Of a stretch of 64,000 bases of DNA, positions 4,551 through 32,261 are shown piece by piece. The stretch is from Clostridium sp. CAG:609 (GTDB taxonomy: Bacteria; Bacillota_I; Bacilli_A; RF39; UBA660). Below the pieces are notes generated by a model. The model was not told the DNA's origin, did no database searches, and worked only from the letters and a program-made list of their open reading frames with translations. Position numbers and translations under genes: made by a program. The stretch covers positions 82,996-146,995 of the forward strand of contig FR903546.1 of the NCBI GenBank assembly GCA_000438075.1. The letters are read 5' to 3'. The stretch's first letter is position 1. Each line of letters starts with the position of its first letter.

Positions 4551-5345
4551 CTACCCAAGTGCAACATCGAAGATCATCATAAGTAAAAATCCAAATATCG
4601 TAAATAAGGCCATTAGGTCTTTTTTTTCATTGGTTTGACTTTCTGGAATTAACTCTTGCACTACAACATAAATCATTGCACCACCTGCAAAAGCAAGTAG
4701 TATTGGTAAAAGTATTTGTACCTTTATAACAAGTATAGCTCCAATTACTGCAGAAATTGGTTCAACAATTCCACTTAAAACTCCAAATATAAATGCTTTT
4801 GTAGTACTCATTCCCTCTCTTCGAAGAGGTAATGATACTGCAGAACCTTCTGGAAAATTTTGTATTCCAATTCCTATTGCAAGCATAACTGCTGACATAA
4901 GTGTTGCCCCATCTAAATTATAAAAAACAGAACCAAAAGCAACACCAATAGCCATTCCTTCCGGAATATTATGAAGTGTTATTGAAAATATTAACATTAA
5001 ACTTCTTTTCATACTACTTGCATTTTTATTATTTTCTGTTAATCTATCAAATATTTTATCTCCACTAAAAAGCAGTAAGCCACCCAAAAGTACTCCAATT
5101 GAAACAATCAACCATGAAATTAAATTCAGATTATTAGCCATTTCTATAGCAGGTGAAAGCAAACTCCAAAATGTCGCAGCAAGCATAACTCCCGCAGATA
5201 AACCAAGCATTGCATCCATTGTATTTTTATTTACTTTTTTAAATAAAAATACAACTGCTGAACCCATCGAAGTAATTGCCCAAGTAAACATTGATGCAAC
5301 TAAAGCCTGCAATGGGTATGTTAAATTTATATACCAATTAATCAT
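4551..5345 (-). CDS. ZIP family divalent metal (zinc) transporter, ZupT/GufA-like
   Basis: Polytopic membrane protein with the ZIP signatures HNIPEGMAIG and QNFPEGSAV. Confidence 0.85.
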   Translation of the reverse strand: MINWYINLTYPLQALVASMFTWAITSMGSAVVFLFKKVNKNTMDAMLGLSAGVMLAATFWSLLSPAIEMANNLNLISWLIVSIGVLLGGLLLFSGDKIFDRLTENNKNASSMKRSLMLIFSITLHNIPEGMAIGVAFGSVFYNLDGATLMSAVMLAIGIGIQNFPEGSAVSLPLRREGMSTTKAFIFGVLSGIVEPISAVIGAILVIKVQILLPILLAFAGGAMIYVVVQELIPESQTNEKKDLMALFTIFGFLLMMIFDVALG

Positions 5346-11733: not shown

Positions 11734-13350
11734 ATGAATAAATTTATAAAAAAAATAAAAAATAATCAAGTGTTATACGTATTAAGTATCTTAATAATAG
11801 GTATATTACTCTTGCTTATTGCAAGAATTACATATGCATATTTAGCTCCAAGAATACAAAGTGCACTAAGTAATATAACAACTATATCTGATACAGTAGA
11901 TGATTTTAAATTGGAACTAGGGCAACCTCTAAGTCTAAATGCAACAGCAACAACACTACCAGAAAGTGGTTCAAATTTAGTGGTAACTTCAACAGAAATA
12001 GCAAGATTAAAAGCCAATAGTACAAAGAAAACAGCCAACTACAACTATTATTTATACTTACAAATTACTAATAACACATTTAAATATTCAGATGGAACAA
12101 CACCAGAAATAATACTTACAATAACAGATCCAAATGGTAATGAAATAACATCTTTAGATAATTTAACTTATGGAACATATAATGGTGTATCAGGTTTTGA
12201 TGTAACAACTAAAACTGGTTTATTTGCTATCGCAAATAACTATGAAATAACATCAAACTCAAGCACAACATATACGGAACATGATTGGAATATTACACTT
12301 ACATATCTAAATCTAAACATAGACCAATCAGGAAACTATGGCAATAGTTTTGAAACAAAGTTATATTTACAAAAAGAAGAAAAAGAATTAACGGCAACTG
12401 ATGTCTGCCCAGGTAAATCATTAAATGATTGTGTTATTGCTCAATATACTGGAATAAAAAATTCTAATATATATTATCACGATTCTAACCTAACAAATGG
12501 AGCAGGGGATAACTCATATAGATATGCAGGTGCAAGTAATCAAGTAAATAACTATGTATGTTTTGGATCAAACGTAGCACCATGCCCAGCAGATAATCTA
12601 TATAGAATAATCGGAGTATTTGGTGATAAAGTAAAACTAATCAAATCAGATTATGCAACGACAGCATTATTAGGTGCAGATGGAGATTACAGCAGGATGT
12701 ATACTGCAAATAATTGGGATAATTCAGCTTATAAAGGTAACAATTTAGCTAATATAGCAGGATATACATGGAATTATAATGGATTATCAGACCATACAGG
12801 AAATAATCAATACGGATCAAATACATGGAGTACAAGTTTGTTAAATAAAACAAATTTAAATACAAATTTCATAACAAATATAGGAGCAGACTGGGCAGCC
12901 AAAATAGATACAACAACATGGAAAGTTGGAGGAAATACATGGGAAAATATAGGAACCCAACCAGCTAAAACAGCATATCAAAATGAAATAGTAAGTCCAG
13001 TAACAACAAATACAACTGATAATGCAACAACATATAGTGCAAAAGTTGGCTTAATGTATGTAAGTGATTATGGATTTGCAGCAGCACCAAGTGCATGGAC
13101 AGCAAATTTAGACACTTATAATGGCGAAGCCATTAAAAATGTTAATTGGATGTATATGGGGCTGTATGAATGGACTATTTCCCGTTATGCGGGCTCTGAC
13201 TATCTTGCGTTCGGTGTGTATAGCACCGGTAGCGTGTCTTACAACATTGCGACTTATGTGCTTGCTTTGCGGCCAGTCTTCTATCTCGCATCTTCCGTGA
13301 ACTATGTATCGGGAAGCGGCACAGCCGCTGATCCTATTGTGGTAAACTAG
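11734..13350 (+). CDS. membrane-anchored or secreted surface protein with a C-terminal variable (C-type-lectin-like?) cassette
   Basis: N-terminal signal-anchor and an Asn/Thr-rich extracellular body. The C-terminal motif series reads MYVSDYGFA...NWMYMG.YEWT.SRY...RPVFYL...SGSGT..DP. The last ~200 nt are compositionally foreign (GC-rich). Confidence 0.8.
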   Translation: MNKFIKKIKNNQVLYVLSILIIGILLLLIARITYAYLAPRIQSALSNITTISDTVDDFKLELGQPLSLNATATTLPESGSNLVVTSTEIARLKANSTKKTANYNYYLYLQITNNTFKYSDGTTPEIILTITDPNGNEITSLDNLTYGTYNGVSGFDVTTKTGLFAIANNYEITSNSSTTYTEHDWNITLTYLNLNIDQSGNYGNSFETKLYLQKEEKELTATDVCPGKSLNDCVIAQYTGIKNSNIYYHDSNLTNGAGDNSYRYAGASNQVNNYVCFGSNVAPCPADNLYRIIGVFGDKVKLIKSDYATTALLGADGDYSRMYTANNWDNSAYKGNNLANIAGYTWNYNGLSDHTGNNQYGSNTWSTSLLNKTNLNTNFITNIGADWAAKIDTTTWKVGGNTWENIGTQPAKTAYQNEIVSPVTTNTTDNATTYSAKVGLMYVSDYGFAAAPSAWTANLDTYNGEAIKNVNWMYMGLYEWTISRYAGSDYLAFGVYSTGSVSYNIATYVLALRPVFYLASSVNYVSGSGTAADPIVVN

Positions 13351-13372
13351 GTCAGGCGGGGTGCAAAATAAA
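13168..13372 (+). repeat. GC-rich variable cassette, copy 1 (expressed copy)
   Basis: It aligns without gaps to 29445..29627. Positions 13168..13192 are identical in both copies (25 nt). The block 13193..13272 is hypervariable. The block 13347..13372 (ctaggtcaggcggggtgcaaaataaa) recurs exactly at 31165..31190. Confidence 0.85.
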
Positions 13373-15325: not shown

Positions 15326-15402
15326 GGACCTCTAGCTCAGTTGGTTAGAGCCCCCGGCTCATAACCGGGTTGTCGCAGGTTCGAGTCCTGCGAGGTCCAC
15401 CA
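15326..15402 (+). tRNA. tRNA with CAT anticodon, probably tRNA-Ile2 (lysidine type); software may call it tRNA-Met
   Basis: The cloverleaf folds by hand: acceptor ggacctc/gaggtcc, anticodon stem cccgg/ccggg with loop ctCATaa, T stem gcagg/cctgc, encoded CCA. G1-C72 pairing argues against an initiator. C4, C5 and the GGCTCATAACC loop resemble Ile2. Confidence 0.9.
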
Positions 15403-15408
15403 TTATAT

Positions 15409-15493
15409 GCAGGCGTGGCGGAACTGGTAGACGCGTTAGACTTAGGATCTAATGGAAAATTCCGTGGGGGTTCAAGTCCCTTCGCCTGCACCA
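15409..15493 (+). tRNA. tRNA-Leu (anticodon TAG)
   Basis: Acceptor gcaggcg/cgcctgc, anticodon stem ttaga/tctaa with loop ctTAGga, a long variable arm and encoded CCA. Confidence 0.92.
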
Positions 15494-15580
15494 ATTAGTT
15501 TATAATGCAAATTGTTGCATATAATAAAAAATGGGAAATACTTAACTTGCTATGTTGAGTACTTGCCATAAATGTGATTG

Positions 15581-15617
15581 GTACTCAATCTAGTTTATGA
15601 TTGAGTACTATTTTTTT
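15581..15617 (+). terminator. rho-independent terminator after the tRNA pair, overlapping the 3' end of the antisense peptide gene
   Basis: gtactcaat / attgagtac stem followed by tattttttt. Confidence 0.65.
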
Positions 15618-15697
15618 ATAATTAAAATCATCAAGGATATAATTAATAAAATGATGATTATTATTAGAAATATAATTAATAAATCTTTTTTCTTCAT
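15608..15697 (-). CDS. 29-aa hydrophobic peptide, type I toxin-like (MKKKDLLIIFLIIIIILLIISLMILIIKK)
   Basis: It is not in the ORF track because it is under 60 aa. GGAGG lies ~10 nt upstream of the ATG. The peptide is a single TM helix flanked by Lys residues. A consensus promoter lies upstream and a 15-bp inverted repeat brackets the gene. Confidence 0.55.
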   Translation of the reverse strand: MKKKDLLIIFLIIIIILLIISLMILIIKK

Positions 15698-15767
15698 AAT
15701 CTATCAAGCCTCCTTCCTTTTTTAGAAGTTGGCAAGTACTCAACAGTTAAAATTTCCCATGAATATA

Positions 15768-15796
15768 ATTATACTATTCGTAAACATGCTAGTCAA
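15768..15796 (-). promoter_or_regulatory. consensus sigma-A promoter driving the small peptide gene
   Basis: On the minus strand it reads TTGACT, a 17-nt spacer, then TATAAT. Confidence 0.6.
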
Positions 15797-16006
15797 GCGA
15801 ACAATTTGTGAAATTTTAAATCAATCTAAAATAATAAAATTAGTGTTTGACAGTATGTAAAAGATATAATATATTATTAGTGTCATCAGCAATAAAAAGA
15901 TGATTAATATAAGAAAAGTAATTAATAAAAATGAACAAGAAAGTCAATCGAAAATGGTTGATTTTTTTGTATGCTTGATATAGAATATAACCCGAGGTGA
16001 AAAGCT

Positions 16007-16843
16007 ATGAACCAAGGAATAAATGAAATATTAATTGAGTTTGTTAATACTATGATACAAACATTTCCAAAAGATGATTTAGTATTACTAAATAATAATT
16101 TAAAGAAACTAAATATTGTTACAAGAAGTTTTAAGTTATCTAATGTTTTAAAACATGAAAATACCGGAGCACAATGGATACCAGAAAAAAATAGAATTGA
16201 AATATCTTTACAAAACTATAGAAACACTATTAACCATGAACTATTGCATGTTGCAAGTACATATATTAGTGATAATAATATGATTCATTGTGGTTTTTAT
16301 AAATATTTAAATGAACATAGTAACATCGGAGAATCAATTAATGAGGGATATACCCAATACCTAGCAGAAAAATACTTTACTAAGTATCCTATATTAAAAG
16401 CCTATACATATGAAAAACAAATAGCTTCTGCTATAGAATTAATAATTGGAAGAAAATTAATGCAAAAACTATATTTTAATGCAGATTTAAATGGATTAGT
16501 ATTATCTTTAGAGAACTTTGAATCAATCGATAATATATATACATTTTTAAATAAAATGGATTATGTAACAAAAACTAAAAAAGATAAAAGAATAATCAGC
16601 GTATTAAAAGAAATAAATTATTTTGTAACAAGCATGTATCTTAGAAAAGTTATGAAAGAAAATAAAGATATAGACATAAAAGATCTAATAAAAAGAATGC
16701 TTCCATTAATAATGGTTCTTCCTAGTCAAATGACTATAGATAAAGTGGCATATAAAATAAATGATGATAATGAAGTATTTAGTATAATAAATAATGTCTA
16801 TAATGAATTTCAAAACAAATCAACAAAAAATTTTAAAAAATGA
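16007..16843 (+). CDS. hypothetical protein with an HExxH motif (putative zinc metallopeptidase)
   Basis: HELLH, followed ~30 aa later by NEGYTQ (a possible third ligand Glu). No further family recognition. Confidence 0.4.
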   Translation: MNQGINEILIEFVNTMIQTFPKDDLVLLNNNLKKLNIVTRSFKLSNVLKHENTGAQWIPEKNRIEISLQNYRNTINHELLHVASTYISDNNMIHCGFYKYLNEHSNIGESINEGYTQYLAEKYFTKYPILKAYTYEKQIASAIELIIGRKLMQKLYFNADLNGLVLSLENFESIDNIYTFLNKMDYVTKTKKDKRIISVLKEINYFVTSMYLRKVMKENKDIDIKDLIKRMLPLIMVLPSQMTIDKVAYKINDDNEVFSIINNVYNEFQNKSTKNFKK

Positions 16844-28830: not shown

Positions 28831-29577
28831 ATGAATAATGATATACTAGTAATAATCAATTGGTATGAAGAAAATATAAACAATTTAGATCATGCTCTAG
28901 AAAGGTTAAATGAAGTATTTAAAAATATAATAATTTGTAATAGATCAAATATTTTAATACCAATAAAAAACTTCAAAGTAATAAAATCTGATGATTATAA
29001 TGGCTTTTTAAATGAAATAAATAGTTATATAAATGAATTTAATATCCAAGTTAAATCATTAGTATTCGTAGATGATATAATTAATACAACATATGATGAT
29101 ATAGTAAAATGTGGTATGGAAGCCATTGAAAATAAATATAAAATAATTCAAGGATTTAATGATAATTACTTATTTGGAGAAAAATTTATAAATAATTTAT
29201 TTAATATGCTATTTAATACTCGTTTTAAGAGCGTTTTACCAGACATTAAGGCAATTAATATAGATTTATATAAAAGTCTCTTAGAAAAGATAAATAAAGA
29301 CGATTATAACACTAATAATTATTTAATAACTGCAGTTAATGAAAATATTCATATAAAAGAAAAAAATATAAAGACAATATGGCGAAAAAATCAAAAAAGA
29401 GTAGGGTGGAGTAAAGAAAGGGCATTACCCTATCTAAAGTTTGGGAATGGACTATTTCCCGTTATGCGGACCTTGCCTTTTATGTGTTCTATGTGTATTA
29501 CACCGGTTTCGTGCTCAACAGCAATGCGTTTAATGCGTACGGGGTGCGCCCAGTCTTCTATCTCTCATCTTCCGTGA
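28831..29577 (+). CDS. glycosyltransferase-like ORF whose 3' end runs out of frame into the GC-rich cassette (chimeric, probably truncated)
   Basis: The AT-rich part (to ~29395) has a GT-A-like layout (ILVIINWYEE..., VFVDDI). The last ~55 codons read the cassette in a frame different from the one homologous to 13168..13350. Confidence 0.4.
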   Translation: MNNDILVIINWYEENINNLDHALERLNEVFKNIIICNRSNILIPIKNFKVIKSDDYNGFLNEINSYINEFNIQVKSLVFVDDIINTTYDDIVKCGMEAIENKYKIIQGFNDNYLFGEKFINNLFNMLFNTRFKSVLPDIKAINIDLYKSLLEKINKDDYNTNNYLITAVNENIHIKEKNIKTIWRKNQKRVGWSKERALPYLKFGNGLFPVMRTLPFMCSMCITPVSCSTAMRLMRTGCAQSSISHLP

Positions 29578-29627
29578 ACTATGCATCGGGAAGCGGCACA
29601 GCCACTGATCCGATTTTGGTAACTTAA
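29445..29627 (+). pseudogene. orphan promoterless copy of the variable C-terminal cassette (EWTISRYADLAFYVFYVYYTGFVLNSNAFNAYGVRPVFYLSSSVNYASGSGTATDPILVT*)
   Basis: 61 codons colinear with 13168..13350. The frame is intact but there is no upstream coding body. Confidence 0.75.
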
Positions 29628-31112
29628 TACTGGACAGTTTTGAAAAACAGCTAATAAAATAAGGTAAAAGTTGAAAAGTAATAAAAGTCATGATTTTTAA
29701 TTAATTTCATGTCTTTTTTTCATGCTGAAAATAGGCAATATAAATTACCTTTTAAAAAGTTGTAAATAATGATTTAAAGCTAAGCGTCATACAGAGTGAA
29801 ATTAATAGGGAGTCTAAAATACCTTTTACAATTTTGTGCTGATGCCATTTTAAAAAGCAATAAACCAGTTTTAAATCTTGATATTACTCTATGGGATCTG
29901 GTTGAATTTGTACCTTTTCTTGTTGGTGTTATTCCAATTTTTCTATAACAAGCACTGTTTTTTGAAACTTCCGTACCAAGACATGTTAAAAAAATACTAG
30001 CAATACATACTAGAGAATATAAGTTATCAAATGCATGTATCTTTTTTATACCACTTTCTTCTAAATAAAATCCATTTGTTTTTTGAGATTTAAATAAGAA
30101 TTCAATAGAACCAAATCTGTAACCATAATATATTTTAGCAAGTTTGGGTCTTCCGTTGGTAATTAAAAGCCATGCTTCTTTATGATTTTTACTTTTACAA
30201 TATGCTAGATTAAATATATATTTTTTTCTGGTAAATTCCAAATTGTGGTAAAGTTTGGATGCGTGAACAAGATGTGGTAAATCTTTAATTGGCATCCAAA
30301 CTTTATGATCTTCTGGGTATTTTTGATAAAAAACTTTTAAGTTTGATTTGCATCTAAAAACAAATATATCTCCTAAGCTATCAATGTATTGCATTAAGGG
30401 AAACAAATTACCAAACCATCTGTCTGCAAGAAAGATGATGTTAGCATCTGGAATATATTTTTTTATTAAGTTGTGGCAATATAAAATTCCTTTTTTTAAA
30501 TTAATCATTTTAAATGCTTCACCACTTTCTTCATCTTTTTTTCCAAGAAACACTTCAAAATAAATTGGAATACCTTGCTTTCCAATTCTTACAGTAAACA
30601 TCAATATGGTAAAGTGGTCTTTATCATAAGAATGATCAAACGAAATGTGAATGTTCCTATCTTCATGAGACAACTTATATTTTGATAAAACTTCATTTAC
30701 AATATCATCAAACAGCTTATGAAAAGTATAGTGATGATTATGTAATGTTCGATAAATTCTTTTGTGAATAGAATTCAAATATATAGAGGAATTTAATTCT
30801 TTAAAATATTCAGTTGCTATTTTAACATAGTTAACTGATTGTGCCTGAATCATTGAATAAAACATTCCCGGAACAAAGTTAAGTAGTGTTTTTGATTTTG
30901 TAAATTTTTTAAAAAAATTAGAAAATCCCTTTACAATTGTGTTATTGTTATTATATAATTTAGACATGTGACAGCTCCTTTTATTTTTTTTGATATTATA
31001 ATTATAACAATAGTTGTCACAATTGAAAAGCACCAAATCGGTGCTTTTTTAGATAAACGAAAGATTTGATATAAAATATATACCGAAAACTCAAATTAAA
31101 AACTGTCCAGTA
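29628..31112 (-). mobile_element. insertion sequence (IS4-like or related DDE family), 1485 bp
   Basis: Perfect 14-bp terminal inverted repeats tactggacagtttt (29628-41) and aaaactgtccagta (31099-112) bracket a single transposase gene. It is inserted directly after the cassette stop codon. Confidence 0.85.
29780..30967 (-). CDS. DDE transposase of the IS
   Basis: LADRWFGN, AWLLITN and YGYRFGSIEFLFKSQK motifs resemble IS4/IS1634-type transposases. AAGGAG precedes ATG 30967. Confidence 0.8.
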   Translation of the reverse strand: MSKLYNNNNTIVKGFSNFFKKFTKSKTLLNFVPGMFYSMIQAQSVNYVKIATEYFKELNSSIYLNSIHKRIYRTLHNHHYTFHKLFDDIVNEVLSKYKLSHEDRNIHISFDHSYDKDHFTILMFTVRIGKQGIPIYFEVFLGKKDEESGEAFKMINLKKGILYCHNLIKKYIPDANIIFLADRWFGNLFPLMQYIDSLGDIFVFRCKSNLKVFYQKYPEDHKVWMPIKDLPHLVHASKLYHNLEFTRKKYIFNLAYCKSKNHKEAWLLITNGRPKLAKIYYGYRFGSIEFLFKSQKTNGFYLEESGIKKIHAFDNLYSLVCIASIFLTCLGTEVSKNSACYRKIGITPTRKGTNSTRSHRVISRFKTGLLLFKMASAQNCKRYFRLPINFTLYDA

Positions 31113-31262
31113 ATAAGATCAGAATAAACTAGGATCGGACATGCCTGTCTAGCGCGTCCGCGTGCTAGGTCAGGCGGGGTGCAAAATAAATGTGAAGTGA
31201 AGAAATTGGCGTGGTGGAAGACCCCAACTGCCGCATCTCGCGGTTTGAGCGAGCCCATTAAC
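31113..31262 (+). other. GC-rich downstream flank of the orphan cassette
   Basis: It contains taaactagg plus the 26-nt block 31165..31190, which is identical to 13347..13372. An extra 36-nt segment forms an imperfect GC-rich palindrome (31143..31175). Confidence 0.7.
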
Positions 31263-31373
31263 TTAACTGTGTCTTTTAAAGAAATATATGTATAAATTAA
31301 CGTAAAATAGATGTAAATGTTATTGCATCTGTTTTTCTTTGTTGTTATAATGAAGTTGAAAGGAAAAGAAATT

Positions 31374-32261
31374 ATGCAAAAAATATTAGAGTGTCAAAAC
31401 TTATGTAAGAGTTTTGGAAAAAAACAAATTTTAAAAGATGTTTCATTTGAGATTGATGAAAAAGATATACTTGCCTTTATTGGTCCGAATGGTTCTGGTA
31501 AAACTACCACGATAAAATTAATACTTGGTTTACAAAATATTGATAGTGGTTCTGTTAAAATTAATGGATATGATGTTGAAAAAGACTTTGTTAAATCAAT
31601 TGAAAAAGTCGGAGCTATTGTTGAAAATCCCGATACATATATGTATCTAAGTGGTTGGCAAAATTTAAAACTAGTTGCAAACCTATATAAAGGAGTAACT
31701 GATGATGATTTAAAAACTATAGTTCAAACTGTAGGTCTTGAAAATCGTATTCATGATAAAGTAAGTAAATACTCATTAGGTATGCGTCAAAGACTTGGTA
31801 TAGCTAGAGCCTTAATAAATAAACCTAATTTATTAGTTTTAGATGAACCCACAAATGGATTAGACCCTGAAGGAATCAAAGACTTAAGAATACTTTTAAA
31901 AAGATTAGCTAAAGAAGGAATGGGTGTCTTAATATCAAGTCATAACCTAGCAGAACTAGAAAGCTTTTGTAACAAAGTATTAATCATTGATAATGGAGTT
32001 ATCTTAGAAAAAAGTGAAGTTAAGAAATTTAAAGATAATAATAATAAATATTTATTCAAGGTAGATAATACTAAAAATATAAAACTTGATGGAATGTATG
32101 AAGTTACTAAAACTACATTTTGCATTAATGGAGAAAAAGAGAGTATTGCAAGTATCATTAAAACATTAGTTAATGAAGATATAAAAATATATGAAGTAAC
32201 ATTAACTGAACTTACTTTGGAAGAAGCATTCTTAAAGAAAACCGGAGGTATGAAAAAGTGA
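31374..32261 (+). CDS. ABC transporter ATP-binding protein (ABC-2 type)
   Basis: Walker A GPNGSGKTT, signature YSLGMRQR, Walker B LLVLDEPTNGLD. Confidence 0.9.
   Translation: MQKILECQNLCKSFGKKQILKDVSFEIDEKDILAFIGPNGSGKTTTIKLILGLQNIDSGSVKINGYDVEKDFVKSIEKVGAIVENPDTYMYLSGWQNLKLVANLYKGVTDDDLKTIVQTVGLENRIHDKVSKYSLGMRQRLGIARALINKPNLLVLDEPTNGLDPEGIKDLRILLKRLAKEGMGVLISSHNLAELESFCNKVLIIDNGVILEKSEVKKFKDNNNKYLFKVDNTKNIKLDGMYEVTKTTFCINGEKESIASIIKTLVNEDIKIYEVTLTELTLEEAFLKKTGGMKK

Follow-up and report, generated by a model that had tools for sequence, protein, structure and literature searches.

Why should the 3' end of a gene stand for a second time in a genome, without the body of the gene and parted from its own flank by an insertion sequence (IS)? 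The question is raised by a GC-rich segment (29441–29627 and 31113–31262) in a 64,000-nt stretch of Clostridium sp. CAG:609 (contig FR903546.1, positions 82,996 to 146,995), which was analysed as a whole and is called the window here. The segment very probably comes from a gene targeted by a diversity-generating retroelement (DGR), of which it would be the variable repeat (VR) and the 3' cis region, in a decayed example of a known system. In this system, a reverse transcriptase (RT) would copy a 99-nt template repeat (TR) into cDNA, misreading adenines and assisted by Avd and a MutS-like protein, and the cDNA would replace the VR at the C-terminus of surface proteins. An apparently odd "orphan cassette" would then become an ordinary, explainable relic of a DGR target.

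The repeated gene end and its templates

The GC content is ~0.27 for the whole window and 0.47–0.57 in its GC-rich parts (0.475 at 29445–29627, 0.52 at 31113–31262 and 0.50 at 13168–13372). Comparison of the window with itself aligned 13168–13345 with 29445–29622 over 178 nt, of which 79.8% are identical (E 1e-41). The gene 11734–13350 thus has its last 61 codons (13168–13350, copy 1) repeated at 29445–29627 (copy 2), and the 26-nt block that follows the copy 1 stop, 13347–13372, recurs at 31165–31190. At 39 of 183 positions the copies disagree, and 32 of these are codon positions 1 or 2. The frame of copy 2 is open from 29415 to its TAA stop at 29625–29627, and an upstream open reading frame (ORF), 28831–29577, runs through it in a different frame. 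A segment of 36–37 nt bounded by CTAGG repeats is present 3' of copy 2 and missing 3' of copy 1. Neither a third copy of the repeat nor an RT-like ORF was found within the window. An earlier note, made by a model from the letters of this DNA alone, had described a second copy of a variable cassette, an upstream ORF entering it in another frame and a GC-rich segment embedded in AT-rich DNA, all of which agrees with these data. The start that it gave, 29400, has to be moved to 29441, as 29400–29440 belongs to the native upstream ORF, and its designation of that ORF as glycosyltransferase-like is unsupported by Pfam or NCBIfam.

A scan of genomes and metagenomes with a conserved 19-mer yielded ~40 related VR loci in "uncultured Bacilli", and a motif screen for DGR RTs led to a complete element on L066, a contig from related gut Bacilli. 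The element consists, in order, of target VR and stop, hairpin, a 230-nt GC-rich spacer, a 99-nt TR (TTTCCCGTAATGCGGACAAT...GGGGTGCGCCCAG), a further 184 nt behind the TR, a MutS_I-like ORF, Avd and RT, and it would represent the intact layout of the system. The RT starts ~0.9 kb downstream of the TR, matches RVT_1 (E 3e-19) and contains the motifs GLPIGNMTSQ and YMDD; the Avd has weak matches to bAvd and NF033474. Complete elements were seen in four relatives (L066, L094, L098 and L099), and the RT-adjacent layout of L066 is also found in L094–L101.

The comparison of VRs with these templates carries the interpretation. All 12 mismatches between the L066 TR and the VR of the same contig lie at adenines of the TR. 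The VR of copy 2 (VR2), compared with this template of a relative rather than one of its own genome, has 15 mismatches at adenines and two elsewhere, both of them synonymous (P 1e-7). Five further VR sequences from other loci fit the L066 TR with 0–2 non-adenine mismatches, and five fit a second TR type, represented by the 102-nt TR of L082, with 0–1. Three features by which a VR is recognised are found together: nearly adenine-only differences from a TR, an RT with the IGxxxSQ motif beside that TR in relatives, and a position at the 3' end of a gene with a bias towards codon positions 1 and 2. The L066 TR is rich in AAC and AAT codons. The proposal of the earlier note that copy 2 is a second, decayed DGR target is borne out in that copy 2 is a nearly adenine-only derivative of an RT-adjacent TR.

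The VR of copy 1 (VR1) fits the L066 TR less well, with 18 mismatches at adenines and 12 elsewhere, and differs from an inferred type-B template at 18 adenines and two other positions. It falls into a third VR subgroup, in which 27 of the 39 variable columns correspond to TR adenines (P 4e-11). Judged by these comparisons, copy 1 is of another TR type, and neither copy can therefore have served as template for the other, as had been supposed on other grounds. Sequence 3' of the ...CCAG end is not templated, and the differences between the copies there are ordinary paralogue divergence.

Other searches returned little. The 19-mer ATCGGGAAGCGGCACAGCC, used to look for a TR, found VRs only and nothing in viral contigs; it later turned out to lie beyond the 3' end of the TR homology. 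Metagenomes gave no match to a guessed 35-mer specific to the TR. In viral contigs, a 19-mer from the GC-rich tail was absent and the 5' VR motif gave two chance matches only, and an Rfam scan of 29000–31500 yielded nothing relevant.

In four DGR lineages, an ORF of 79–84 aa overlaps the RT stop (L066:7857–8096 on the minus strand, L094:7082–7327, L098:2297–2551 and L099:7067–7315). Its product (MKNKYYFFKR.YK.YV.I...KGKYKS...) has no Pfam match and may be a further DGR accessory protein.

Target genes, cis elements and decay

In the related contigs L011 and L012, copy 2 forms the end of an intact 895-aa ORF, behind which stand the IS and the ABC transporter known from the window. The encoded paralogue combines fn3-like repeats with the same ~300-aa C-terminal domain as the 538-aa protein of the copy 1 gene. 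Relatives with the intact gene are 99.97–100% identical to the window on this side, and the cassette is therefore not an orphan in the species.

Gut metagenomes contain more than 8000 homologues of the 538-aa protein, a few of which are annotated as PF19789 (DUF6273); the window protein itself scores no better than E 5.1 against this family. VRs are expected in a C-type-lectin-like or Ig-like ligand-binding fold. The AlphaFold model of the C-terminal 317 aa is poor (predicted local distance difference test, pLDDT, 48) and unsuited to structure search, and a PDB profile search found no sequence relatives of the target protein. No family in Pfam or NCBIfam was assigned to the 538-aa, 895-aa, 326-aa or 486-aa proteins.

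In the same-species contig L001, which agrees with the window at 97.4% of positions over this locus, the orthologue of the 538-aa gene bears a VR that is 102 nt long and belongs to the L082 TR type (L001:11402–11590). L060 has such a VR as well, and the window has a 99-nt VR of another type. Different TRs therefore appear to have written the same gene, and from these alignments at least two TR types have done so in different strains. L001 also retains the 37-nt hairpin segment after the stop.

A second strain-distinguishing variable stretch with indels lies well outside the VR, at 12690–12820 (residues ~320–362 of the 538-aa protein). It is not DGR-like and may have arisen by recombination among paralogues.

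Table 1. Positions in the window of the two target-gene ends, their repeats and the adjoining features (columns: feature, position, strand, remark)
Feature	Position	Strand	Remark
538-aa target gene bearing copy 1	11734..13350	+	with signal-anchor
VR1, putatively TR-templated variable repeat, second TR type	13178..13276	+	adenine-biased mismatches to templates
Hairpin-deletion site between CTAGG repeats, then 21-nt spacer remnant	13347..13372	+	L001 keeps 37-nt segment here
First 203 codons of 326-aa membrane-protein gene, cut at junction	28831..29440	+	100% identical to L003–L010 up to 29440
Junction, 1 nt overlap, between regions adjacent in no other assembly	29440..29441	.	contig comparisons
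Last 62 codons of 895-aa DGR target paralogue, gene body absent from window	29441..29627	+	100% identical to L011:7184–7370
VR2, TR-templated variable repeat, 99 nt	29455..29553	+	15 adenine and 2 other mismatches to L066 TR
Putative IS4-family insertion sequence, supplies TAA stop	29623..31117	-	perfect inverted-repeat core 29629–31112
IS transposase gene, 395 aa	29780..30967	-	NCBIfam NF033591 (IS4 family)
Relic of alternative ORF end (ATC AGA ATA AAC TAG), right of IS	31118..31133	+	matches ORF end of L022 and L071
First 123 nt of 230-nt GC-rich target-to-TR spacer	31131..31253	+	91% identical to L066 spacer positions 1–123
Conserved hairpin/cruciform after target-gene stop, 6+8-bp stem, 4-nt loop	31142..31176	+	DNA fold -12.8 kcal/mol, z -2.7

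The IS that separates VR2 from its flank is ~1484 bp long and the sole copy in the window. Elements of the IS4 family have a DDE transposase, terminal inverted repeats and a target-site duplication of 9–12 bp. The transposase matches NF033591 with E 9e-21 and 74 bits, below the curated cutoff of 152, and is probably a distant member of the family. The 14-nt perfect inverted-repeat core of the IS, which had been recognised before, lies within 22-nt arms that are 91% complementary (29623–29644 and 31096–31117). The flanking 10-mers, ATTTTGGTAA and ATCAGAATAA, match at five of 10 positions, so that there is no clean target-site duplication. The IS does not sit exactly after the stop codon, as had been stated, but within the last codons of the ORF, with the TAA inside its terminal repeat. 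L011 and L012 carry the same IS at the same site.

Beyond the IS follow the hairpin and the spacer. The palindrome of the earlier note (31143..31175) is real, with its limits and its stem–loop structure corrected as given in Table 1. The hairpin is kept across lineages, with compensatory changes in four of 16 pairs, and would be part of the 3' cis region of the target. The GC-rich tail (31131–31253), whose origin was traced, as the earlier note had advised, by comparison with relatives, belongs to the spacer leading to TR and RT there; in L066, L072 and L082, the spacer continues into a TR. By this comparison, the window has lost what lay beyond 31253, namely the rest of the spacer, the TR, the MutS-like gene, Avd and the RT.

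Relatives provide further stages of decay. In L072, an identical VR2 precedes an IS21-like insertion, beyond which lie the hairpin, the spacer in its full length and a TR altered by point changes; there is no RT. The TR is truncated in L048 and L063, in seven loci the cut comes directly after TTTCCC, and RTs are lost. Loci of gut Bacilli thus include intact elements and elements that have lost the RT, have a truncated TR or spacer, lack the hairpin or are split by an IS. Such a series could serve to define the cis elements needed for retrohoming and to establish when natural populations lost hypermutation.

For the window, the following history is proposed. The 895-aa target beside the element would have kept its VR as copy 2. 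An IS4-family element would have entered the last codons of this target, parting the VR from its hairpin, and a deletion past spacer nucleotide 123 would have taken out the TR, the accessory genes and the RT. Copy 1 would be the VR of the remote 538-aa paralogue and go back to another TR type; a deletion between the CTAGG repeats would have removed its hairpin. Both VRs would now be frozen relics.

The IS21-like (IstA/IstB) element lies at L072:2415–5344. It shares with the IS4-like element of the window the terminal motif ACNGGACAGTTTT(G)AAAAA and the same insertion point, within the last two codons of the target genes. An element of this sort or a 24-nt relic of one is present in ~13 of 38 distinct VR loci, L017, L025, L046, L049, L058, L067 and L081 among them, which is compatible with one old insertion as well as with a hot spot. 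Should the insertions be independent, it is conceivable, if improbable, that IS elements with ACNGGACAGTTTT-related ends recognise the DGR target hairpin and insert between it and the VR, in a manner reminiscent of group IIC introns, which home to terminator stems. Such insertions would be a natural means of switching a target off, as they would disconnect its VR from retrohoming.

The join at position 29440

The body of the 895-aa gene is missing from the window as a result of the junction at 29440, which is probably, with modest confidence, an assembly chimera rather than biology. Up to 29440 the window equals L003–L010, and from 29440 onward L011 and L012. In the left-type contigs, the upstream ORF is uninterrupted and encodes a membrane protein of 326 aa. 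The left flanking gene occurs on 21 contigs of the public collection and the right one on 13. The join is reached by eight left-side and two right-side loci, every one of which runs on intact beyond it, and the product of the chimeric ORF was not found in this collection. The window shows no mismatch to L004 over 12,173 nt or to L011 over 14,174 nt, and all other samples have 5–68 mismatches. L004 and L011 are separate contigs of one sample, ERZ913656 (run ERR209553), both intact past the junction, and what appears to be the same strain, independently assembled, therefore lacks the join. The words "orphan" and "grafted" in the earlier note are contradicted by this assembly.

The junction may instead be a real rearrangement private to this strain. 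The VR would then truly be an orphan, joined in the wrong frame to what is left of a membrane-protein gene. The two sides share 1 nt only, which is unusual for a de Bruijn-graph misassembly, as no shared k-mer would mislead the assembler, and leading-strand orientation and positive GC skew are kept in both flanks. On the other hand, the two sides would be at least 30 kb apart, with homologues of mgsA, gpsA, murG, murB and ftsQ in between, and a simple deletion should therefore be lethal. Together with the unrecorded chimeric product and the zero-mismatch contigs that are intact through both sides, this makes a private rearrangement rather unlikely. The join in the source assembly is accordingly flagged as a probable chimera. 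An aberrant retrohoming product was also considered for the junction and rejected, as VR2 here is identical to the VR2 of the intact gene.

Tyrosine recombinase genes lie near both parental sides in relatives (L011:3714–4580 and L004:14107–14997). No common recombination site was seen at the 29440 junction.

Known systems, activity and rival readings

In DGRs of "Architecture D", which include the Legionella DGR, the accessory genes are Avd and a MutS-like one (MSL; Wu et al. 2018, PMC5758913). The L066 element has this architecture, and the elements of the relatives resemble these DGRs in having a target with a C-terminal VR, the TR, MSL, Avd and RT on one strand, in the adenine-specific differences between VR and TR, and in having several targets, both adjacent and remote. 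Unlike Architecture D, the window keeps only the target ends, the TR, MSL, Avd and RT being deleted, and the complete element occurs in relatives only, with the 79–84-aa ORF after their RT. Homologues of the RT family are common in gut Bacilli (2535 at E≤1e-30); gut Bacilli carry a common MSL–Avd–RT DGR family. The Treponema denticola DGR, with seven remote targets (PMC5758913, PMC4891356), is similar in that one element type serves several scattered paralogous surface-protein genes and that the DGR content varies between strains. It differs in that the targets here appear to have outlived the element and that more than one TR type seems to have written the same orthologous gene.

The target site of the BPP-1 type consists of the initiation of mutagenic homing (IMH) sequence and a hairpin/cruciform with a GC-rich stem of 7–10 bp and a 4-nt GRNA loop, 4–34 bp from the VR (Guo et al. 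2011, PMC3240598). As in this Bordetella phage, the 3' end of the VR/TR homology is GC-rich here (GGGGTGCGCCCAG), and the VR is followed downstream by a GC-rich stem of 8 bp that ends in a 4-nt loop, the stem sequence varying by lineage with pairing kept. The hairpin here, known from sequence alone, differs in lying after the stop, ~95 nt past the end of the TR homology, in its loop (TCCG or TACC, not GRNA) and in its extra 6-bp outer stem.

Is the system still active in the window? VR1 is identical in 10 protein clusters (P0001–P0010) whose other parts differ by up to 8%, and four contigs, the window, L011, L012 and L072, agree fully in the templated part of VR2. Neither VR shows heterogeneity among close strains. 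In contrast, L094, L095, L096 and L097 have an identical RT protein (P0131), an identical TR and four different VRs; these VRs (4618–4716) differ from the TR (4992–5090) by 15–21 mismatches, all but one at adenines. This pattern clearly indicates that the DGR family is active in a related gut species. Set against these variable VRs, those of the window, invariant among close strains, therefore look like frozen relics that have probably lost their activity. Deletion of the hairpin was tried as the cause of the freezing of VR1, an explanation weakened by L060, which has the same deletion and a different VR.

Some observations weigh against the interpretation of the segment as part of a decayed DGR. 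The distance and the loop of the hairpin depart from the phage DGRs, as described above. The TR type behind VR1 is a reconstruction rather than an observed repeat, and the different VR1 of L060 implies that hairpin loss may not be what froze VR1, or that the deletion may have recurred. Finally, no TR or RT was seen in this genome, but the view covers 64 kb, and an active DGR may lie elsewhere. VR1, and VR2 where its gene is intact, might accordingly still be live remote targets of such a DGR. DGRs with remote targets are known (PMC5758913), the abundance of the RT family in gut Bacilli would allow for one, and L001, of the same species, carries another VR1, in agreement with the L082 TR type. 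Live targets nevertheless appear improbable, given the invariance of both VRs over many strains and contigs, the absence of the hairpin from VR1, the 1.5 kb of IS between VR2 and its hairpin, and the deletion of the local TR–RT module.

Two other explanations offered by the earlier note fare worse than that of a decayed DGR target. Copy 2 as a silent donor cassette for recombinational variation of gene 11734, like that of pilS/vls systems, would account for a promoterless partial copy in the window and could draw on the tyrosine recombinase genes near both parental loci in relatives. It is nonetheless very improbable, for in relatives 99.97–100% identical to the window on that side the copy ends an intact gene of expressed type, VR1 and VR2 differ mainly at TR adenines, as derivatives of two TR types would, no mosaic of VR1 and VR2 occurs among 38 distinct VRs, and VR1 is invariant among close strains. 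Even less credit can be given to horizontally acquired higher-GC DNA or a generic mobile-element end, suggested by a GC content of 0.47–0.57 in a genome of 0.27. In the complete elements of L066, L094 and L099, the same GC-rich VR, hairpin, spacer and TR stand within AT-rich, native-looking DGR genes; the RT, Avd and MutS-like genes are AT-rich and only the former four GC-rich, which argues against a foreign origin, and the segment is always joined to the C-terminus of one protein family.

Apart from the repeats, the window contains a strain-variable island at 15500–16750, directly after tRNA-Met and tRNA-Leu genes (15326–15493). It does not align with the same-species L001, which has a different ORF of 412 aa there.

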